Numbered from the stretch's first letter, positions 2,614-26,725 are shown. The stretch: 26,987 bases of DNA from Bdellovibrio sp. CG10_big_fil_rev_8_21_14_0_10_47_8 (GCA_002773975.1 PEZR01000005.1:3076-30062), one strand, 5' to 3'. The notes: generated by a model not told the origin, from the letters alone. A program made the numbers and translations.

Positions 2614-2687
2614 TAAATTGAGGAAGATGCAAAATAATAGCTGTTAGGCCCCCCAGGAAGTCAGACCCAGTATTGAAGGGAACCTTG
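2614..2687. promoter_or_regulatory. Short divergent intergenic region expected to hold promoters for wzz (-) and the SDR (+)
   Basis: Inferred from the divergent gene arrangement and an AT-rich left half; no convincing -35/-10 pair identified. Confidence 0.4.
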
Positions 2688-3569
2688 ATGAGCAGAAAAC
2701 TAGTGATTACGGGATCCACAGGGTTCGTGGGCAGACATTTCTTAAAGAGGCTCAATAATGAATTTGAGGTTCAGACCCTAGATCTAAGGAAACAAAATGT
2801 TTCTGAACTTGATTTTTCTGGGGTTGACGCAATTCTCCACCTGGCGGCATTGGTTCATCAGATGAGGGGCGCGCCCCCTGACGCTTATTTTCAAGTGAAC
2901 ACGATTTTAACAAGAGACCTTGCGCTGGCGGCTAAAAATGCCGGCGTTAAACATTTTGTTTTTATGAGTACGGCTCATGTATTCAATGATCAAAGCTCAC
3001 TGGAAAATAAACCAATTGCCTATGACGAGAACTCACCATGCCTTCCCATTGGCCCTTATGCCAAGAGCAAATGGCAGGCCGAAAACATTCTGCGAGAGCT
3101 GGAGGACCCATCCTTCGTTGTTTCAATTGTTCGTCCACCATTGATCTATGGACCCGGAGCAAAGGGAAATTTGGTGAGCTTGGCCAAGCTGGTAAAAATA
3201 GCGCCTTGCTTGCCATTTCTATTTGATACAAATCAGAGAAGTTTGGTGGGCATTGATAATCTGACAGATTTTCTATTCCAAGTTCTTGAAAAAAAAACGA
3301 GTGGGACATTTCTTCCTCAGGATGAGAAACCCGTCAGTCTTCGAGAAATGACGGAATACTTATCAGCGGCCCAACAGCGAAAAATAGTTCTATGTCGTCC
3401 ACCGAAGATTTTTTTGAAAATGTTGTTTTGGCTACGGCCCCAGATCACCGGTCGCCTTTTTGGATCTCTAATTTTGAACTCTTCGAAGACAAATCGAGAA
3501 TTGGGCTATCAACCACGGGTGTCCACCAAAGAGGGGTTCTCTTTGATGATGAACGAAAAAAACCTATGA
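2688..3569 (+). CDS. NAD-dependent epimerase/dehydratase (extended SDR; WbpV/WbpK-like 4-reductase type)
   Basis: ITGSTGFVG, HLAALVH, FMST, YAKSK, VRPPLIYGPGAKGN. ATG 2688 preceded by GAAGGGA is preferred over TTG 2673. Confidence 0.88.
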   Translation: MSRKLVITGSTGFVGRHFLKRLNNEFEVQTLDLRKQNVSELDFSGVDAILHLAALVHQMRGAPPDAYFQVNTILTRDLALAAKNAGVKHFVFMSTAHVFNDQSSLENKPIAYDENSPCLPIGPYAKSKWQAENILRELEDPSFVVSIVRPPLIYGPGAKGNLVSLAKLVKIAPCLPFLFDTNQRSLVGIDNLTDFLFQVLEKKTSGTFLPQDEKPVSLREMTEYLSAAQQRKIVLCRPPKIFLKMLFWLRPQITGRLFGSLILNSSKTNRELGYQPRVSTKEGFSLMMNEKNL

Positions 3570-4466
3570 AGATAAAATCGCCCGAAGACCCTTCTCGAGG
3601 TTCATTTTGGGATGAAAGTTTAAATGTTTCACGGCTTTTGAGCAGTCCAAGTTGAACCGAATTTCCCCCGCTCGCACCGGGTCTCGCCACTGTTGTTCAA
3701 GTTGAACAGTCCCTTTTCCGGCGACCTTCACGCATGCCAGGGCAATTTCTTCCATTGAATAGAGAGTCCCACCGGCAATATTAAAAATTCCGGTGACATT
3801 TTTTTCGATGGCCTCGAAGCAGGCCCACGCGAGGTCTTCGCTGAAGATCAGGTCGGTTCTATCATCGTGAGGAGGATAGACGGTGATCGTTTTGTCTTGG
3901 GCGGCGGTATCAAGCTGCTGCATGATCAATTTATTGTGTTCAAGACCAGGTCCGTAGACCGATGAGGGGCGTAAACAACAGTACGTCAAATCGTTAATTT
4001 GCTCTAGGGCCCGCTCTGCTAAAAGTTTGCTATAGCCATAGTAGCCACCAACCCCGGAATTTCCCAAGGGGGAGTCTTCAGAAATTTTTTGGGAATTCAC
4101 CTTTTCATAAACGGTGGCGCCAGAAATGAAAATCATTTTTTTTGACCGTGAAGCACACCACTGTCCTAGAAGCTCGGTAAACCGCACATTAATATCAAAA
4201 ATAGTGTCGTCGGTCATTTTTCGTGAGGCCGCTGGGACTGCGGCTGCGGCATGAATGACAACAGCCACGTCTCCAAGAAGTGTATCCAGCTGCTCGAAAG
4301 TTCTCACTACCCGGAAGTCCGCCAAACGCAATTTTTCCTGGGAAATCTGCGGCGACGAGATGTCTCCGCGACGAATAGCCACAAAGTCTAAGCTTCGATT
4401 CTGGGCTTCTTTGACAAGAGCCCGACCAACCATTCCGCCAGCGCCAGTGATGCCGACTAGTACCAT
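3564..4466 (-). CDS. NAD-dependent epimerase/dehydratase (extended SDR)
   Basis: GITGAGGMVG, IHAAA, FISGATVY, YGYSKLLAE (YxxxK), LRPSSVYGP, FNIAGG. Confidence 0.88.
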   Translation of the reverse strand: MVLVGITGAGGMVGRALVKEAQNRSLDFVAIRRGDISSPQISQEKLRLADFRVVRTFEQLDTLLGDVAVVIHAAAAVPAASRKMTDDTIFDINVRFTELLGQWCASRSKKMIFISGATVYEKVNSQKISEDSPLGNSGVGGYYGYSKLLAERALEQINDLTYCCLRPSSVYGPGLEHNKLIMQQLDTAAQDKTITVYPPHDDRTDLIFSEDLAWACFEAIEKNVTGIFNIAGGTLYSMEEIALACVKVAGKGTVQLEQQWRDPVRAGEIRFNLDCSKAVKHLNFHPKMNLEKGLRAILSS

Positions 4467-5500
4467 GTTCTGACAATTCCTCGAGAACTCTGATCAGAAA
4501 GAAGTTGTTCAGCGGAGACCCCGTCAATAAAAACCTCTTCCAAATAGCGCATGGCTACTCCGCTTTGAATTTGAGGTTGTTCCAAGACTTCATTGAAAAG
4601 ATAGTTTCTAACCACCATGTCTGGTTCATTGAACCCATAGTGGGCGCGCACCGCCGTCGTTCCAGAAAAGCGGGCATTGAATTCAAAAGGAATTGGTCCT
4701 TTGGGGCCGATCATTAACTGAACGTTCAGCGAACCCATAAAGGGCAACTTTTCGCCGATTTCAAGCAACAGGGAGTTCAGTTCTTGAAATGGTGCGACCT
4801 CGATCATCCAAGAACTTCCACCGCGCAACGTTCTTCGCGCCGTAAAGGGCCCCAGCAATTGCCCCTCTTTGGTTTTAAAGATGCTGCAGGTGTACTCGGC
4901 ATCCAGTTGATCACGAGGGGTCGCTATCATTTCTTGCAGAATTGGTCGAGGGGTCGTTGGAAAATGCGCGATAAGGTCTTGTTCATTTTTTACAACATGG
5001 ACATGTCGGCTGGAGGTGCCAGTTCGAGTTTTAAGTACCAGGGGATAACCCATATCAGTTGCGATCTTCAGGGCTTCATCCATATTCGAAACAATGTGTG
5101 TTTGGGGGCAGCGAATCCCTGCGTTTTTCAAAAACTCATAGGTCAACCACTTGTCGTTGGAAAGTTTCACGGTTTCGTGAGGCGAGGCCACAATGATAGC
5201 CTTGGTTTTGCTTTCAAGCACAGTTCGGTTTTTAGAAAAAAAGTCGAGGTCAAATTCTGATCCGACCAGAACCATATCAATATGGCCATGGTTCAAGACA
5301 TCGATCATTTCTTCAAGAGAGTTTGGCGACTCCACCCGTGGAATCATCAGAGATTCATCACTCCGAAAAAGACCCGAGTTAAGTGGATGAACGTCACCCA
5401 TAATCAAGCGTAGAGATCTTTTTGACAGTCGCAGAGATTTTAAGATGCCCTGACCCACGCCACTGCCAGCACCTGTAATTAAGATACGGGGATCTGCCAT
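4457..5500 (-). CDS. ATP-grasp domain protein (carbamoyl-phosphate-synthase/PylC-like ligase)
   Basis: DKWLTYEFL, GYPLVLKTRTGTSSRHV, ILQEMI, EYTCSI, LNVQ, FEFNARFSGT match the ATP-grasp pattern (DK...P...KP..G.GS...QE...EIN.RF.G). Confidence 0.85.
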   Translation of the reverse strand: MADPRILITGAGSGVGQGILKSLRLSKRSLRLIMGDVHPLNSGLFRSDESLMIPRVESPNSLEEMIDVLNHGHIDMVLVGSEFDLDFFSKNRTVLESKTKAIIVASPHETVKLSNDKWLTYEFLKNAGIRCPQTHIVSNMDEALKIATDMGYPLVLKTRTGTSSRHVHVVKNEQDLIAHFPTTPRPILQEMIATPRDQLDAEYTCSIFKTKEGQLLGPFTARRTLRGGSSWMIEVAPFQELNSLLLEIGEKLPFMGSLNVQLMIGPKGPIPFEFNARFSGTTAVRAHYGFNEPDMVVRNYLFNEVLEQPQIQSGVAMRYLEEVFIDGVSAEQLLSDQSSRGIVRTWY

Positions 5501-6213
5501 GAGGACTCCTTTCCTTGGAGGACTCGCTGAATCCTGGCCACTTCATGAAGGTTATGGGCATTGGAACCTAATGAAATCATCGCACCAAACTCTTTGCACC
5601 AAGCATAGATTTGCCAGGGTTCAGGGTGATAGTGTGGGTTGATCTCTACGGCCACAGATTGGTCGGCAGCTTTTTGAATTAATTTTTTAAAGAGATCCGC
5701 TGGTGGCGCTGCTTTAAATCGCCGGTAAGACATGCCAAAGGGATGACCTAAGATATCCACCCGTGGATTTTCTAGAACGGCCATCGACAGACGAAATTCT
5801 CGATCGATGGCTTGTTCAGAGGTCAGCCCCCCCGAGTTTCCTTTGATGCTACCCGTTTCCCCAGGAAAACGGTGAACACTGGCCATCACAAGGTCAACGG
5901 TGTTGTAAATTTCATCACTGAGATCAAGCTCTCCAGAAAAATCAGCTACCTTTGACTCCACACCCACCAAAGCAAGGCATTGATCATGCGGAAGGCTTCT
6001 CACCGTTTGGGCAAATTCTTGAAACCAGGGACCGCTGCTTTTGCGTGCGTGTTCCGAAAATAAAATCGCGCGCAAACCTTGAGAAATGGCCTGGGCATGC
6101 ATTTCTTCCACAGAGCTTTCCCCATCGGTGAACTTGGTATGCATATGAAAGTCATAAGGAACGATATTGGAGGCGGTTGTGCTCTGCATTTCCAAAATAT
6201 ATGGGCTAATCAT
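5479..6213 (-). CDS. PHP-domain phosphoesterase (histidinol-phosphatase-like)
   Basis: DFHMHTKFTDG, FSEH, GVE, ASVH, ILGHP, VEIN, LGSNAH are PHP metal ligands. The terminal SDAH motif reads SNAH here. ATGA overlap with the legI stop. Confidence 0.85.
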   Translation of the reverse strand: MISPYILEMQSTTASNIVPYDFHMHTKFTDGESSVEEMHAQAISQGLRAILFSEHARKSSGPWFQEFAQTVRSLPHDQCLALVGVESKVADFSGELDLSDEIYNTVDLVMASVHRFPGETGSIKGNSGGLTSEQAIDREFRLSMAVLENPRVDILGHPFGMSYRRFKAAPPADLFKKLIQKAADQSVAVEINPHYHPEPWQIYAWCKEFGAMISLGSNAHNLHEVARIQRVLQGKESSWQIPVS

Positions 6214-7375: not shown

Positions 7376-8563
7376 TTAAAGATCAAAGAATTTCTTTTTT
7401 AAAAGAGCCTGGGGGTCCTTAATTTTTTTGAGCTGATCCTTAATTTTTTGGCTTGCGGTGCCATCCCCAAAGAGATTTTCCGTCGCCGAACAATCTTTTA
7501 CGAGAGCTTCACGAACGGCCTTTTCGATGGCTTCCTCCGTGGGGGGGCAATTGATAATGGAGCTAGACTGAATGCGACCCCGCTGTCGATCTCCAATATT
7601 TACTGTAGGTTTCTTCAAAAAAGGCGCCTCGTACAAGGCACTCGAGGAATTTCCGACGACGGCGTCGACCTGTGACATTGTACTGAGATAACGAACTTGT
7701 CCCAGTGATGTATAAGCTTTGGCGTTTGGCCGGGTGGCTACAAATTCATCAACCATAGAGATTAGAATTCTTCCGTCGGTGTCTGCGTTAGGCTTTGTAA
7801 AAATTAAACCAACATCTGGCCCCAGTCTGTCCAGGGCATTCAGTAGCTCTTGGAATTGGCCAGCTGAGGTTTGGGTTTCCAGAGTCACCGGGTGAAAAGT
7901 GATCAAAATATTCTGCCGTTGCCAAGAGTAGCCCATCGATTCGGACAGTTGATCCCGCGACCACATTTGCAATCGTTTGATATAGTCGACACCCACGTGA
8001 CCGACATGGAAAATATGTTCTGGATTTTCGCCGAGCTGGCGAACTCGTTTTGCAGAGACAGCGCTATTGGTGAAATGTAAATGGGACATTTTCGTCAGGC
8101 TATGACGGATAGCTTCGTCAACAACGCCCTCTGTTGAATCCCCGCCGGAAATATGGGCAATAGGGATGCGGGCAACCAGTGCAGCTTGAGCCAGAGCCAG
8201 GAGTTCAAACCGATCACCCAGCACCAACAGGATATCTGGTCGTAGCCGATCGAGAGCTTCAGAATACCCAATGGTGCCGAGGCCCATTGATTTCGCAATT
8301 CCAATCGGGGAATCGCTGGACAAAAGCATCTCGACTTTGGCATCCAGCTGAAAACCGTCGGCTTCGATGGTCTTGTAGGTCAAGCCAAACTCGGGTGACA
8401 AATGCATTCCAGTTACTAGGACCTGCAATTGCAATTCGGGATCACCTTGGATTTCTTTCATGACCCAATAAAGCAATCCATATTCAGCGCGAGTGCCAGT
8501 GGCCACGAGAATGCGACGTTGTCGCGGGGATTTTGAAGTTGGGTTTGTGTTTGTCGGATTCAA
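7376..8563 (-). CDS. neuC: Hydrolysing UDP/GDP-N,N'-diacetylbacillosamine 2-epimerase (NeuC/LegG)
   Basis: TGTRAEYGLL, TGMHLSPEFG, LGDRFE, HISGGDSTEG, DEAIRHSLTKMSHLHF, ITFHPVT, VGNSSSA, NIGDRQRGR. TTG start at 8563 follows an AGGGGAG RBS. Confidence 0.95.
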   Translation of the reverse strand: MNPTNTNPTSKSPRQRRILVATGTRAEYGLLYWVMKEIQGDPELQLQVLVTGMHLSPEFGLTYKTIEADGFQLDAKVEMLLSSDSPIGIAKSMGLGTIGYSEALDRLRPDILLVLGDRFELLALAQAALVARIPIAHISGGDSTEGVVDEAIRHSLTKMSHLHFTNSAVSAKRVRQLGENPEHIFHVGHVGVDYIKRLQMWSRDQLSESMGYSWQRQNILITFHPVTLETQTSAGQFQELLNALDRLGPDVGLIFTKPNADTDGRILISMVDEFVATRPNAKAYTSLGQVRYLSTMSQVDAVVGNSSSALYEAPFLKKPTVNIGDRQRGRIQSSSIINCPPTEEAIEKAVREALVKDCSATENLFGDGTASQKIKDQLKKIKDPQALLKKKFFDL

Positions 8564-11243: not shown

Positions 11244-11433
11244 TAAAACCTACTCTCGAATTATTTAAGAAAGAAATCGCAGCTAATAGGAATCTTGTCA
11301 ATGAAACAGCCCGGTTGAGTATCACCCGAGGGAACCGGCATTGTCCTAATGACTTACGGCGTCGTGCAAAGCGGATGTGTTCAAGAAAAAAATGCGATAA
11401 CAAAAACGGCATTCACTGATGAGCGGAGATATT
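11244..11433. promoter_or_regulatory. Divergent promoter region between the 7-gene minus block and the 13-gene plus block
   Basis: Largest intergenic gap (190 bp to ATG 11434) and divergent orientation. It contains TTGTCA at 11295 and a CCGGTT/AACCGG inverted repeat at 11311..11338. Exact promoter elements not resolved. Confidence 0.5.
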
Positions 11434-12483
11434 ATGGCGAGATGGAAAGAAGCTCTGGTCTCACGACAAACTTCAATTCGCGAAGCAATTCAAATTCTGG
11501 ATAAAAGCGCTCTACAGATTGTTTTGGTGGTGGACGAGAACCAACGCCTTTTGGGAACCATTACCGATGGTGATGTTCGTCGCGGTATTTTAAGAGGTTT
11601 GGAACTGAGTCAGTCTGTTCAAGAAGTGATGAATCCGAACCCTACGGTGATTCGTTCCGAAGATGACCGAGAGACCATTTTGGCCACCATGAGAAGCCGC
11701 GGCATTCACCACATGCCCCTCGTTGACGACGATGGCCGACTGGTTGGCTTAGATACTCTAGATGAGTTGCTTCAGCCGCAACGGAAGGACAACCCTGTGG
11801 TGTTGATGGCTGGTGGCTTGGGAACTCGGTTGCGTCCGTTGACCGCGGATTGTCCCAAACCAATGATTCATGTTGGTAATAAGCCTTTGCTGGAAACCAT
11901 CATTGAAAACTTTTTGTCCTATGGATTTCATCGATTTTACATTTCGGTAAATTATAAGGCTGATGTGGTGAAGTCATATTTTGAAGATGGTTCTAAGTGG
12001 GGCGCCAATATTCAATATTTGCATGAAACACATAGCCTCGGAACGGCTGGCGCATTGAGTTTGCTGCCAGAAACGCCGGAACTCCCCATGCTGGTCATGA
12101 ATGGGGATGTGCTGACAAAGGTAAACTTTGCTCAACTTTTGAATTTTCATTCCAAAAAACAGGCCATGGGAACAATGTGTGTGCGGGAATATGACTTTCA
12201 AGTGCCCTACGGAGTCGTGGAAATTGATAAACACCGCATGTTGGGGATCACTGAAAAGCCCATTCAGAGATTTTTTGTTAATGCCGGGATCTATGTTCTT
12301 GATCCAGCGGCCCTGCAGTTTGTGGCGCAAAATACTTTTTTTGATATGCCGACCTTATTTGAGAAACTGATGGAGAAGAAAAAGGAAACGATTGTTTTTC
12401 CCGTTCGAGAATACTGGCTCGATATTGGACAGATGTCTGACTATGACCGCGCCAATGGCGAGTACAAGGAATTTTTCCCATGA
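11434..12483 (+). CDS. CBS-domain nucleotidyltransferase (LegX/PtmE-type glucosamine-1-P guanylyltransferase family)
   Basis: N-terminal CBS pair (LLGTITDGDVRRGIL), AGGLGTRLRPLT..CPKPM, LGTAGAL, NGDVLT, NAGIYVL, EYWLDIG. ATG 11434 after GGAG is preferred over 11419. Confidence 0.9.
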   Translation: MARWKEALVSRQTSIREAIQILDKSALQIVLVVDENQRLLGTITDGDVRRGILRGLELSQSVQEVMNPNPTVIRSEDDRETILATMRSRGIHHMPLVDDDGRLVGLDTLDELLQPQRKDNPVVLMAGGLGTRLRPLTADCPKPMIHVGNKPLLETIIENFLSYGFHRFYISVNYKADVVKSYFEDGSKWGANIQYLHETHSLGTAGALSLLPETPELPMLVMNGDVLTKVNFAQLLNFHSKKQAMGTMCVREYDFQVPYGVVEIDKHRMLGITEKPIQRFFVNAGIYVLDPAALQFVAQNTFFDMPTLFEKLMEKKKETIVFPVREYWLDIGQMSDYDRANGEYKEFFP

Positions 12484-13175
12484 AATCTTCTGTTGTTGCG
12501 TTGATTTGTGCGCGTGGGGGCTCTAAGGGTTTGCCCGGCAAAAACATTCGCCCCCTGGCAGGAAAACCTTTGATTGTTTGGGCCATTGAGCAAGCGCGTG
12601 CGGTTTCTCGGGTTCAAAGGGTTATTGTGTCTACAGATTCCGAGGAAATTGCAGAGATTGCGCGGGGAGCAGGGGCAGAGGTTCCATTTATGCGCCCTCC
12701 GGAATTGGCGAGGGATGACAGTCCCGAATGGCTGACCTGGCGTCATGCCATGAATTTCTTGAAAGAAACCGATGGCGCTTATCCAGATCGGTTTATCGTC
12801 GTTCCAGCGACGGCGCCCCTGCGGAGCGTTTCTGATCTTGAAAAGTGTTTAGACGAGTATGAAAAAGGCGGGGCGGATCTGGTGATTACCGTCACGGAAG
12901 CACATCGAAATCCTGCCTTCAATATGGTGAAGGTGCTCGAAGATGGATGCGTTGGACTGGTGATGCCTCAGAGTTTGATCAGTCGCCGTCAAGATGCCCC
13001 TAAGGTCTATGACGTGACCACGGTGGCCTATGTTGCTCGTCCAGAGTTTGTTATTCACAAGAACAGTTTGTTCGAAGGAAAAGTTCGTCATGTGTGTATT
13101 CCTGCCGAACGAGCTTTGGATATCGATACCCCCTTGGATTTTAAAATTGCAGAATGTCTAATGGCACATCGATGA
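12480..13175 (+). CDS. neuA: CMP-nonulosonate synthetase 1 (NeuA/LegF/PtmB)
   Basis: ICARGGSKGLPGKNIR, VSTD, VPFMRPPELA.D, PATAPLR, DIDTPLDF; ATGA overlap with the upstream gene. Confidence 0.92.
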   Translation: MKSSVVALICARGGSKGLPGKNIRPLAGKPLIVWAIEQARAVSRVQRVIVSTDSEEIAEIARGAGAEVPFMRPPELARDDSPEWLTWRHAMNFLKETDGAYPDRFIVVPATAPLRSVSDLEKCLDEYEKGGADLVITVTEAHRNPAFNMVKVLEDGCVGLVMPQSLISRRQDAPKVYDVTTVAYVARPEFVIHKNSLFEGKVRHVCIPAERALDIDTPLDFKIAECLMAHR

Positions 13176-25579: not shown

Positions 25580-26725
25580 CTAGGAGAGCTCCTTCAAAAC
25601 AAATTTAACCCGATCGATCACAAAATTTTGTTCGTCACTGGTCATACCAGTTGAGCAGGGGAGGGTGAGAATTTGACTCCAAATTCTGTCACTCACATTC
25701 ATATCTGTTCGTGGGGCTTCGGCATAGGGCGCCTGTAGGTGGGTAGGTCGCCAAAATGTTCTGGCAGCAACCCCCTCAGCAACGAGCTTCTGACAGACTA
25801 CCCTTGTATCCATTTCTGAATTCAACAAAACTCCGGGAAACCAGCAGGCGCTTTGGGACCACGTTGGTGATGGAAACATTTCAACGCCGCCAAGGGATCT
25901 AAAGCCCTCGCGGTAGTTTCGATCGATTTGACGTTTTCTTTCTAGAAAAAAATCAAATTGCTCCATCTGAGCACAGCCAAGAGCAGCTTCGATATTGCAC
26001 ATACGGAAATTGAATCCGACGGCATCATGAACGTAGTCGGCTCCAACCCTTGCCGTGGTGGCCAGATGTTTCGCGCGGGCGAGCAGATCTTTATCATTGC
26101 CGATCACCATGCCACCGGATCCGGTGGTGATGGTTTTGTTGCCATTGAAACTCAACGTAGAAAGCGTCGCTAAGCCACCGATCTCTTTACCCTTGTAGGT
26201 CGCCCCCAGGGCCGCGGCGGCATCCGCCACAACAGGCAGGTCATATTTCTTGGCGATGGCACAGATTGGATCCATGTCCGCACAGAGACCCAAAGTGTAG
26301 ACCGGAAGAATACAAGAGATACGGCGTCCAGATTTTTTGTGAACTAATTTTCCCGATGCGAAGACAGCTTCCGCGCTCAGAGCTTCTTCCAATTTCTGAG
26401 GACAGAGGGTCCAACTTTCCGGAGAGACATCAATGAGCCAGGGAGTGGCGCCCGTGTGGCTGATTGCATTTGCAGTCGCAATAAATGTGAATGATGGAGT
26501 GATGACCAAATCATCACGTTGGACGCCGAGGGTCGTCAGAGCCAGCTGTATTGCCGTTGTTCCAGAAGAAGTAGAAACCCCCAAGGATGATTGTGAACGA
26601 GCAGCAACCATATTTTCAAATCGATCGACGAAAGGGCCAACGGAGGAAACAAAATTTGTCCGAATACATTCGATCAAATATTTTTCTTCATTTCCAGAGA
26701 GATTAGGGATGGCCAGAGGGATCAT
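25580..26725 (-). CDS. legC: LegC-family PLP aminotransferase (nucleotide-4-keto-6-deoxy-GlcNAc 4-aminotransferase)
   Basis: IPL..P...GNE.KYL..CI...FVSSVGPFVDRFE, SSGTTA, DAAAALG, SFNGNKTITTGSGGM, VGFNFRMCNIEAALG. Confidence 0.8.
   Translation of the reverse strand: MIPLAIPNLSGNEEKYLIECIRTNFVSSVGPFVDRFENMVAARSQSSLGVSTSSGTTAIQLALTTLGVQRDDLVITPSFTFIATANAISHTGATPWLIDVSPESWTLCPQKLEEALSAEAVFASGKLVHKKSGRRISCILPVYTLGLCADMDPICAIAKKYDLPVVADAAAALGATYKGKEIGGLATLSTLSFNGNKTITTGSGGMVIGNDKDLLARAKHLATTARVGADYVHDAVGFNFRMCNIEAALGCAQMEQFDFFLERKRQIDRNYREGFRSLGGVEMFPSPTWSQSACWFPGVLLNSEMDTRVVCQKLVAEGVAARTFWRPTHLQAPYAEAPRTDMNVSDRIWSQILTLPCSTGMTSDEQNFVIDRVKFVLKELS

Follow-up and report, generated by a model that had tools for sequence, protein, structure and literature searches.

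The locus and its genes

The window, that is, the whole 26,987-nucleotide stretch of DNA analysed here, carries a run of five minus-strand genes that encode, head to tail, NeuC, NeuB1, a PHP phosphoesterase, an ATP-grasp ligase and an extended SDR (Table 1). The sequence-only reading had described the last three as overlapping by 4, 22 and 10 bp behind the NeuB1 stop codon and as lying outside the LegB/C/H/G/I/F pathway. The overlaps are indeed present at 6210-6213, 5479-5500 and 4457-4466, no LegB/C/H/G/I/F homologue is found among the three proteins, and alignments showed that the start codons of the cassette genes match the N-termini of their homologues.

NeuB1 scored 306 bits against PF03102 and 479 bits against TIGR03569 (cut-off 399.65), and it shares 44-56% identity with the NeuB proteins of cassette loci that bear LegB and LegC. 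The name legI in the window needs caution because canonical LegB was not found in the window genome, a MAG that is 81.5% complete. With 85.8 bits, the SDR encoded upstream of the window's LegC-family gene stays well short of the TIGR04180 cut-off of 475, while a true LegB is present in related loci (494.8 bits in L023). The PtmE-like and CMP-nonulosonate synthetase genes recur across the cassette loci.

Table 1 Genes of the window discussed in the text
Feature	Position	Strand	Profile or domain matches
Extended SDR (NDP-sugar type), 300 aa	3564-4466	-	PF01370
ATP-grasp carboxylate-amine ligase (putative), cassette core, 347 aa	4457-5500	-	NF009402
PHP-family metal-dependent phosphoesterase, 244 aa	5479-6213	-	PF02811
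NeuB1, nonulosonate synthase, LegI type by context, 360 aa	6210-7292	-	TIGR03569, PF03102, SAF domain
NeuC, hydrolysing NDP-sugar 2-epimerase, LegG type by context	7376..8563	-	TIGR03568 448 bits
PtmE-like CBS-nucleotidyltransferase + CMP-nonulosonate synthetase	11419..13175	+	PF00571 + PF00483; TIGR03584-like/PF02348
LegC-family aminotransferase, would supply 4-amine	25580..26725	-	TIGR04181 415 bits, cut-off 420

Conservation of the trio

A survey of metagenomes that covered 80 loci bearing an orthologue of the ATP-grasp gene indicated that the trio is a widespread, so far uncharacterised cassette. Of the loci that could be assessed on the respective side, 53 of 58 have PHP immediately before ATP-grasp on the upstream side and 55 of 59 have SDR immediately after it on the downstream side. 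All three genes are contiguous and co-directional in 42 of the 47 loci with both flanks assessable. These counts overstate independence, since shared descent is probable for many loci. The conservation of the full trio in 42/47 loci argues against a chance arrangement. Each of the 39 loci that span 8 kb or more carries nonulosonate genes.

The usual order in the cassette loci is LegB-LegC-PHP-ATPgrasp-SDR-LegI-LegG-PtmE-LegF, and the trio therefore occupies the slot of LegH. PHP comes after LegC or a methyltransferase in most loci. In some ten further loci, as in the window itself, the trio is placed after NeuB, not after LegC. Partial cassettes also occur, with PHP missing from L073, L083 and L084, SDR from L053, L054 and L070, and both from L104. 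As LegH is absent from these loci too, we regard the ATP-grasp protein as the core of the cassette.

The three cassette proteins

The ATP-grasp protein matches NF009402 (PRK12767.1-1) over residues 5-326 of 347 and, at 329.8 bits, exceeds the cut-off of 218; hundreds of orthologues exist at 50-63% identity. It is thus a member of the "carbamoyl phosphate synthase-like protein" family, whose name is based on similarity alone. Phylogenetic analysis placed it in a clade of Leg-cluster members with a support of 100/100. The top Foldseek matches of its AF2 model (pLDDT 93) are 2pn1, PurK, PylC and biotin carboxylase, with E values of 1e-17 to 1e-20; 2pn1, the nearest solved structure, is a structural-genomics entry. 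Residues K157, E273 and N275 are invariant across 33 homologues and are putative ATP/Mg ligands. Among structures of characterised enzymes, the closest are PurK, biotin carboxylase and carbamoyl-phosphate synthetase, which use bicarbonate, so the acyl chemistry of this enzyme might be quite different from that considered below.

The PHP protein scored 45.7 bits against PF02811 (gathering threshold 26.4). Of the metal-binding set of such enzymes (HxH, H, E, H, H, DxH), all 26 homologues compared share H23, H25, H55, E86, H114, H157 and H220, and D30 is invariant as well. The final DxH motif, however, has Asn in place of the canonical Asp in the window protein and 20 of the 26 homologues, with Asp in the other 6, which speaks somewhat against the proposed phosphatase role. 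The structures nearest to its AF2 model (pLDDT 94) are YcdX, the PHP domain of PolX and histidinol-phosphate phosphatase. We propose that this protein might strip a phosphate from the ligated acyl group.

The SDR matches PF01370 with 108.6 bits, and its GxxGxxG motif (G8, G11 and G14) and S115/Y143/K147 residues are invariant in 26 homologues. The end of its β2 strand reads S-R with no Asp, and its cofactor is probably NADP(H). Its best PDB profile match is 3m2p (E 1.9e-29), and the protein resembles other extended SDRs that bind NDP-sugars, with nothing unusual about it. According to the sequence-only reading, it might make the acyl donor.

Fusions and other clades of the ATP-grasp family

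Relatives of the ATP-grasp protein are fused to phosphoesterases as PHP-GRASP (P0211 and P0212), calcineurin-like-GRASP (P0256) and HAD-GRASP (Atlas rows 8-9), while other fusions join the ATP-grasp domain to an extended SDR (P0244), a methyltransferase (P0206) or a phosphoglycosyltransferase (PGT). The last of these, P0262, shares 29% identity with the window enzyme over residues 6-340 (E 5e-50). In loci of other clades, the neighbourhoods are PGT>GRASP>HAD (L005 and L174/L188) or have a metallophosphoesterase adjoining GRASP (L017, L022, L024, L026, L164 and L167), and L185 has PHP>GRASP>SDR within a cluster that contains a PGT and DegT and lacks NeuB. Common to the other-clade loci are a DegT/LegC-type aminotransferase, an ATP-grasp protein and a phosphoesterase. 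PHP, HAD and calcineurin-like, the phosphoesterase types fused to or adjoining the ATP-grasp relatives, are three folds with no relation to one another.

Mutual exclusion with LegH

Leg clusters without the ATP-grasp gene served as controls, and of these 36 clusters 26 have an acetyltransferase gene of the NeuD/PglD type within 9.5 kb of LegC according to an HMM of that family. With the same HMM, none of the 27 LegC-containing cassette loci has one, and overall it gave 2 weak cases in 81. The genome G066, which is 99% complete, encodes LegB (494.8 bits), LegC (462 bits) and the run NeuC-NeuB-PHP-GRASP, and no TIGR03570 match was found at E<=1e-20 anywhere in G066 or G682. Profile searches detected a hexapeptide domain in none of PHP, ATP-grasp and SDR. 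From these patterns the cassette appears as a candidate functional substitute for LegH/PglD/NeuD (TIGR03570) from outside that family.

Elsewhere in the window genome, a NeuD/PglD-like acetyltransferase gene adjoins a GT4 glycosyltransferase gene on contig C53, with a score of 152 bits that is just below the cut-off. The legH gene of C. jejuni likewise sits apart from the remaining leg genes. The absence of LegH from a cluster is therefore not equivalent to the absence of its function.

Proposed biosynthetic route

The exclusion with LegH and the constant presence of a DegT/LegC-type aminotransferase, even in loci without NeuB, make the 4-amine the most likely target of acylation by the ATP-grasp enzyme, which we consider rather probable as a step taken instead of LegH. 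Acylation of a free amine had been only the second choice of the sequence-only reading, and it is now favoured. The main proposal of that reading, a tailoring unit that ligates and then dephosphorylates, here within a nonulosonate cluster, is upheld in part: three phosphoesterase folds paired with ATP-grasp speak for it, whereas specific support is lacking for an amidation of the kind seen in the C. jejuni capsule.

We infer a possible route, including its acceptor amine, its phosphorylated donor, the order of events and the part played by the SDR, as follows. A dehydratase and the LegC-family aminotransferase would yield GDP-2-acetamido-4-amino-2,4,6-trideoxy-glucose. The ATP-grasp enzyme would then convert a small carboxylic acid into its acyl phosphate and couple the acid to the 4-amine, which would become N7 of the nonulosonate. 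The acid might bear a phosphate ester, for which 3-phosphoglycerate is our first guess and phosphoenolpyruvate (PEP) our second, and cleavage of this ester by PHP would leave a glyceroyl or a pyruvoyl group, respectively. The extended SDR, with NADP(H) as the likely cofactor, would act on the NDP-sugar by redox chemistry or epimerisation, possibly converting pyruvoyl to lactoyl. NeuC/LegG and NeuB1/LegI would then form a 5-acetamido-7-(hydroxyacyl)amido nonulosonate that is subsequently activated with CMP, so that the route would lead to legionaminic acid with a 7-N-hydroxyacyl group.

The trio thus probably swaps the acetyl group of a legionaminic-acid-type surface sugar for another, hydroxylated acyl group, to judge from the gene families and their distribution. 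The balance tips slightly towards the trio being an accessory cassette of legionaminic-acid-type clusters that carries out the step of LegH by this whole route, and the chances are about even that the donor acid bears a phosphate removed by PHP. We only tentatively name 3-phosphoglycerate as the donor of a glyceroyl group, a choice that would leave the SDR without an obvious job. PEP as the source of a pyruvoyl or lactoyl group is a fainter prospect, and with it the glyceramido precedent of PglB2, described below, is not directly transferable.

Alternative explanations

In the capsule synthesis of C. jejuni, Cj1438, which has an ATP-grasp domain, amidates a sugar carboxylate, and the HAD phosphatase Cj1435 then removes the phosphate. 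The window cassette might work in the same manner. The carboxylate would then be C1 of a nonulosonate or that of a uronic acid, the amine would come from a phospho-amino-alcohol, for instance serinol phosphate or ethanolamine phosphate, and PHP would be the phosphatase. Both systems would have a phosphorylated block ligated by ATP-grasp and then dephosphorylated, the phosphoesterase partner clearly belongs to the system, the sister clades of the window enzyme have Cj1435-like HAD partners, and a class-III aminotransferase (cluster c15) is found in 10 cassette loci. In the C. jejuni pair, however, the sugar gives the carboxylate and the small molecule the amine, whereas the sugar most likely gives the amine here, and the cassette differs further in the PHP fold of its phosphatase and its additional SDR. 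Amidation of a carboxylate would also leave, given the exclusion with LegH, an unacylated amine in need of an acylase, and the trio and GRASP-phosphoesterase pairs occur in clusters with DegT and PGT that lack NeuB and uronic-acid genes. No conserved gene of the cassette loci would make a phospho-amino-alcohol, a C1 amide might hinder CMP activation, and we know of no description of C1 amidation of a nonulosonate. We consider this explanation improbable. Alanyl- and glutamyl-substituted legionaminic acids are known, and a slightly better but still low chance is given to the ATP-grasp enzyme adding an amino acid, for example D-Ala, Ser, phosphoserine or Glu, at position N7 or N5, in which case PHP and SDR would modify either the sugar or the side chain of the amino acid. 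Its N-terminal domain is PylC-like, its best structural matches include PylC, and it resembles RimK, LysX and Ddl more weakly, while O-phosphoserine would account for a partner resembling histidinol-phosphate phosphatase. Family members fused to FemAB/GNAT peptide-forming domains (P0199 and P0203) also point this way, although the FemAB-fused proteins fall outside the clade of the window enzyme in the tree. The pairing with phosphoesterases of three folds and with an extended SDR would be unexpected for plain ligation of an amino acid, and the loci have no conserved N-acetyltransferase for the new amino group. A relevant case is the type B flagellin locus CDR20291_0244-0247 of C. difficile, which encodes a FemAB-like protein, an ATP-grasp protein, an ornithine cyclodeaminase-like protein and an FdtB-like aminotransferase. 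The ATP-grasp gene next to the FdtB-like gene, CDR20291_0245, is required for a peptidylamido sugar (PMC5207246). The likeness drawn from gene context is that of an ATP-grasp "carbamoyl-phosphate synthetase" beside a sugar aminotransferase and an N-acyl sugar, with the FemAB-like gene mirrored by the ATP-grasp-FemAB fusions in the family of the window enzyme; the differences are an acceptor that is a 3-amino sugar, a peptide substituent and no phosphoesterase or SDR partner.

The position of the trio after NeuB in the window and about ten loci, the several separate sugar cassettes within the window, and the resemblance of the SDR to ADP-heptose 6-epimerase and UDP-GlcNAc/GlcA 4-epimerases would fit a late action on free or CMP-activated nonulosonate, or service to another sugar of the same glycan. 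Examples would be C4 or C8 epimerisation catalysed by the SDR, transient phosphorylation or O-acylation. Such an action is unlikely, as it leaves the missing LegH unexplained and the trio and its analogues are also found without NeuB. The C8-epimerisation enzymes ElaA and ElaC come from other families (PMC13656337), and their look-alikes, GFO/IDH/MocA and classical SDR, occur as separate genes in the cassette loci. In animal Neu5Ac-9-P and Bacteroides KDN-9-P pathways, a 6-phospho-hexose gives a nonulosonate 9-phosphate, and PHP, whose gene in the window shares 4 bp with that of NeuB1 at the NeuB1 stop codon, could be the phosphatase partner of NeuB1, with ATP-grasp and SDR as unrelated neighbours. 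We disfavour this role on the grounds that legionaminic-type sugars are 9-deoxy and that the occurrence of PHP across the loci goes with ATP-grasp, to which it is adjacent in 53/58 and fused in P0211 and P0212, and not with NeuB; it is very improbable.

Relation to known N-acylation systems

The proposed N7 acylation would be the same step as that of LegH/PglD/NeuD (TIGR03570), in the same slot between LegC and LegG/LegI, but the cassette would use an ATP-dependent ligase and a free acid, whereas LegH is a left-handed β-helix acetyl-CoA transferase. A precedent is the formation of GATDH, 4-glyceramido-2-acetamido-2,4,6-trideoxyhexose. Neisseria PglB2 has an ATP-grasp domain where PglB has an acetyltransferase, and it makes the 4-glyceramido sugar GATDH, not diNAcBac (PMC11130364, PMC6959607). 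No phosphatase partner of PglB2 is mentioned in the Neisseria reports, in which an unnamed ORF8 alone follows PglB2 (PMC3338715). As in PglB2, the window ATP-grasp stands where the acetyltransferase for an NDP-2-acetamido-4-amino-2,4,6-trideoxyhexose would be, and the same replacement is seen in the distribution of LegH-like genes (0/27 against 26/36 in the controls, and none in G066). The window enzyme is homologous to proteins with the PGT-ATP-grasp architecture of PglB2 (P0262). Unlike PglB2, the window enzyme is a separate protein, belongs to a GDP-linked legionaminic-acid cluster and is coupled to PHP and an extended SDR. The C. difficile ATP-grasp gene that neighbours an FdtB-like aminotransferase gene and is required for a peptidylamido sugar (PMC5207246) is a further precedent for N-acylation in place of LegH.

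It is possible, if doubtful, that the large and widespread "carbamoyl phosphate synthase-like" ATP-grasp family as a whole serves to N-acylate NDP-4-amino sugars at the expense of ATP, with phosphorylated glycolytic acids and an obligatory phosphoesterase, as a general system. Acyl groups would then be drawn straight from 3-phosphoglycerate or PEP, the phosphoesterase partner would have been recruited independently from three folds with the SDR as a frequent third component, and in Leg clusters the system would stand in for LegH and yield 7-N-glyceroyl or 7-N-lactoyl legionaminic acid, so far undescribed. As another precedent, Tannerella forsythia has 7-N-glyceroyl pseudaminic acid, the genetic basis of which is stated to be unknown (PMC5378307). 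Such a system would explain alike the origin of the glyceroyl group in Neisseria GATDH and in Tannerella Pse5Am7Gra.

Organization of the cassette-bearing locus

The window, taken from a metagenome-assembled genome of 2.5 Mb and 81.5% completeness, spans a mosaic surface-glycan locus. Seven of its genes form a head-to-tail run that ends with the cassette of PHP phosphoesterase, ATP-grasp protein and extended SDR behind NeuB1 (see table). The genes overlap by 4, 22 and 10 bp at the last three junctions (NeuB1/PHP/ATP-grasp/SDR), exactly as the sequence-only reading had reported, and the predicted start codons of the trio match the conserved N-termini in homologues. Promoter and terminator scans gave signals no better than those in shuffled sequence. 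Genes elsewhere in the window encode two CMP-transferases, a second NeuB, an aminotransferase of the LegC family and a PtmE-like CBS-nucleotidyltransferase.

Coordinates of the head-to-tail run and of additional genes (window positions unless a genome, G, or locus, L, is named; G000 is the window's genome)
Feature	Position	Strand	Remark
Methyltransferase-like gene	11243-10470	minus	first in head-to-tail run
ABC exporter	10432-8582	minus	same run
NeuC	8563-7376	minus	same run
NeuB1	7292-6210	minus	same run
PHP phosphoesterase	6213-5479	minus	same run
ATP-grasp protein	5500-4457	minus	same run; NF009402 329.8 vs curated cut-off 218
Extended SDR	4466-3564	minus	end of same run
Second extended SDR	2673-3569	plus	298 aa
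SDR upstream of LegC-family gene	G000:C157:29873-30775 (L117:2578-3579)		just past the window's right end
Third NeuB-family gene region	G000:C25:4424-6333		different contig
Fusion 3' of ATP-grasp	L023:7035-9221	minus	728 aa, genome G066

With 85.8 bits against TIGR04180, for which the cut-off is 475, the SDR encoded 5' of the LegC-family gene is not a canonical LegB. The 81.5% complete genome yielded no canonical LegB, and its sugar may therefore not be legionaminic acid in the strict sense. The second extended SDR converges on the cassette SDR with a 6-bp overlap; it shows thioester-reductase-like matches (TIGR01746, 63.6 bits), and its N-terminal Rossmann match is partly missing. The third NeuB-family gene of this genome lies beside another DegT-type aminotransferase and may belong to a separate pseudaminic-like pathway.

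Features of the three proteins

The ATP-grasp model (pLDDT 93) is nearest to 2pn1, PurK, PylC, biotin carboxylase, PurD and PurT. The NF009402 name "carbamoyl phosphate synthase-like protein" is a similarity-based label, and a search for longer proteins with the ATP-grasp returned true carbamoyl-phosphate synthetases only. For the PHP model (pLDDT 94) the closest structures are those of YcdX, histidinol-phosphate phosphatases and the PHP domain of PolX. Every metal-binding His and Glu is retained; in the last DxH motif, the window protein and 20 of 26 homologues have Asn for Asp, which the other six keep. The SDR is of the regular extended type with the Ser/Tyr/Lys triad present; among solved structures it is best matched by nucleotide-sugar 4-epimerases, reductases and ADP-heptose 6-epimerase. 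The end of its beta-2 strand is Ser-Arg with no acidic residue, which we read as pointing to NADP(H).

Conservation of the trio in nonulosonate clusters

Orthologues of the ATP-grasp number in the hundreds, at 50-63% identity. A pattern scan over metagenome contigs yielded 80 loci, annotated by tblastn and ORF clustering. A single-protein scan of genome contigs returned six distant relatives only. PHP is immediately 5' of the ATP-grasp and co-directional with it in 53 of the 58 loci having that flank, the SDR is immediately 3' in 55 of 59, and the complete trio is found in 42 of 47; these counts are not independent, as many loci share ancestry. Proximity to nonulosonate genes, on which the sequence-only reading had made its proposal depend, was borne out in all 39 loci of at least 8 kb, 35 of which contain NeuB. 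The most frequent order is LegB-LegC-PHP-ATPgrasp-SDR-NeuB-NeuC-PtmE-CMP-transferase, and LegB was confirmed in L023 (TIGR04180, 494.8 bits). Since PHP (L073, L083, L084), SDR (L053, L054, L070) or both (L104) are absent in a few loci, the ATP-grasp is the core of the cassette.

Frequent additional genes encode a WbuX/HisH/HisF acetamidino system, PtmF- and PtmA-like oxidoreductases and a class-III aminotransferase, and a 385-aa methyltransferase gene is directly ahead of PHP in 15 loci. A sulfotransferase gene 3' of the SDR, with APS kinase and ATP sulfurylase close by (L028-L030, L066, L079), suggests sulfation of a glycan hydroxyl in some lineages, possibly one carried by the proposed acyl group. 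A formyltransferase and PIG-L de-N-acetylase pair after NeuC in the cassette-bearing Leg clusters L052, L059 and L075 suggests 5-N-formyl variants in addition to the altered N7 group. In L023, the fusion in the usual SDR place, directly 3' of the ATP-grasp, oddly pairs a pyruvate-kinase-like N-terminal half (TIGR01064, 268 bits) with a C-terminal sulfate adenylyltransferase half; the kinase half might be related to PEP. The members of the cluster listings include no cultured organism with a known glycan.

We rejected the ElaA/B/C enzymes of 8-epimerisation as an account of the trio, since they are a CMP-transferase and two other oxidoreductase families, and look-alikes of them are present as separate genes in these loci (PMC13656337).

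Exclusion of LegH

The trio fills the slot held in canonical legionaminic-acid clusters by a LegH/PglD-type N-acetyltransferase. As controls we used 36 LegC-centred loci in genomes of the same phylum lacking the ATP-grasp, and an HMM was built from their NeuD/PglD-like genes. Such a gene lies within 9.5 kb of LegC in 26 of the 36 controls, mostly beside LegC or NeuB. Among 81 ATP-grasp loci the HMM matched in two, both weakly (L037, 132 bits; L068, 60 bits on the opposite strand), and in none of the 27 containing LegC. G066 is a 99% complete genome with LegB, LegC (462 bits, above cut-off) and NeuC-NeuB-PHP-ATPgrasp; TIGR03570 has no match at E<=1e-20 anywhere in it, nor in G682, a genome with the PHP-ATPgrasp-SDR trio. 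The window's own genome has one NeuD-like gene, on a different contig beside a GT4 glycosyltransferase, so that here the LegH argument leans on the family-wide pattern.

Phosphoesterase partners across the ATP-grasp family

An exhaustive HMMER search with the ATP-grasp gave 4,376 relatives at E<=0.001, 213 of them at E<=1e-30. The top 150 include fusions of the ATP-grasp to PHP (P0211, P0212), a calcineurin-like phosphoesterase (P0256), an extended SDR (P0244), a methyltransferase (P0206), GNAT/FemAB (P0199, P0203) and a phosphoglycosyltransferase (PGT; P0262, 29% identical to the window protein in an alignment of residues 6-340, E 5e-50). HAD-ATPgrasp fusions from Bacillota are present in the ESM Atlas. 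In two phyla, the genes around more distant members show PGT>ATPgrasp>HAD (L005, L174/L188), a metallophosphoesterase (L017, L022, L024, L026, L164/L187, L167) or HAD (L020, L021, L169) adjoining the ATP-grasp, and, in a cluster that has PGT and a DegT aminotransferase but lacks NeuB, PHP>ATPgrasp>SDR (L185).

These fusions and neighbours indicate that three unrelated phosphoesterase folds (PHP, HAD and calcineurin-like) were recruited to one ATP-grasp family. The constant companion across all types is a DegT/LegC-type sugar aminotransferase. In a maximum-likelihood tree of the ATP-grasp, the partner fold is largely clade-specific and the window protein falls within the Leg-cluster clade (support 100/100). 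A search from the PGT-ATP-grasp fusion toward Neisseria PglB2 reached Verrucomicrobiota-type relatives only.

Proposed role in N-acylation

We propose that the ATP-grasp acts in the place of LegH and activates a small carboxylic acid by converting it to its acyl phosphate. The acyl group would be transferred to the 4-amino group of GDP-2-acetamido-4-amino-2,4,6-trideoxyglucose, the amine that becomes N7 of the nonulosonate. The almost obligatory partnership with a phosphoesterase makes it most likely that the acid bears a phosphate ester, which would be cleaved once ligation is complete. From the resulting sugar, NeuC and NeuB1 would assemble the nonulosonate, to be activated by the CMP-transferase. 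The steps of this route are inferred; family assignments, conservation, fusions and LegH exclusion are what the analysis showed. The leading candidate donor is 3-phosphoglycerate, which would yield a glyceroyl group. Such a group agrees with Neisseria PglB2, the only analogue characterised genetically: there an ATP-grasp domain stands in for the acetyltransferase domain, and a 4-glyceramido sugar is made (PMC11130364, PMC6959607). It also agrees with the 7-N-glyceroyl pseudaminic acid of Tannerella forsythia, whose glyceroyl genetics were stated as unknown (PMC5378307). Phosphoenolpyruvate would explain all three enzymes more neatly, by a route without precedent: after ligation the enol phosphate would be hydrolysed, leaving a pyruvoyl amide for the SDR to reduce to its lactoyl counterpart.

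The sequence-only reading had favoured a Cj1438-like amidation, in which a phospho-amino-alcohol is joined to the sugar carboxylate. Like N7 acylation, this reading has ligation followed by dephosphorylation, but it leaves unexplained both the missing LegH and the module's presence in clusters with only an aminotransferase and a priming transferase. PHP might also be a NeuB-coupled nonulosonate-9-phosphate phosphatase; this is disfavoured, and we reject the pairing because PHP tracks the ATP-grasp, not NeuB. Ligation of an amino acid, with O-phosphoserine as one candidate, is possible, while late action on CMP-Leg or a role in another sugar of the glycan is less supported.

Novelty and implications

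Replacement of an acetyltransferase by an ATP-grasp is already known from PglB2. In our literature search, which paired ATP-grasp or PHP with legionaminic or pseudaminic acid, no paper mentioned the cassette. New here are the stand-alone ATP-grasp with PHP and SDR partners inside legionaminic-acid clusters and its systematic partnership with a phosphoesterase. Ligase-phosphatase pairs are familiar from the C. jejuni capsule. The N-acyl groups of legionaminic and pseudaminic acids influence antigenicity, phage recognition and immune evasion; to our knowledge, the genes installing them are known mainly for acetyl, acetimidoyl and formyl. The cassette is a concrete, assayable candidate gene set for this installation, and flags uncultured organisms expected to bear a non-acetyl N7 substituent. 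The donor logic it suggests, a phosphorylated acid followed by a phosphatase, could extend to Neisseria PglB2 and many other aminosugar clusters. The acylation role would also correct the misleading label "carbamoyl-phosphate synthase large subunit" borne by those homologues that our searches returned with a name.

Several ESM Atlas clusters close to the window's ATP-grasp (P0001) in structure and features are commonest in Uroviricota, which points to phage-encoded copies of the family. The fusions with FemAB/GNAT (Acetyltransf_6), about 717 aa long (P0199, P0203, P0310 and related proteins), are common in Verrucomicrobiota and parallel the C. difficile type B flagellin locus, where FemAB-like and ATP-grasp proteins are encoded by separate neighbouring genes.
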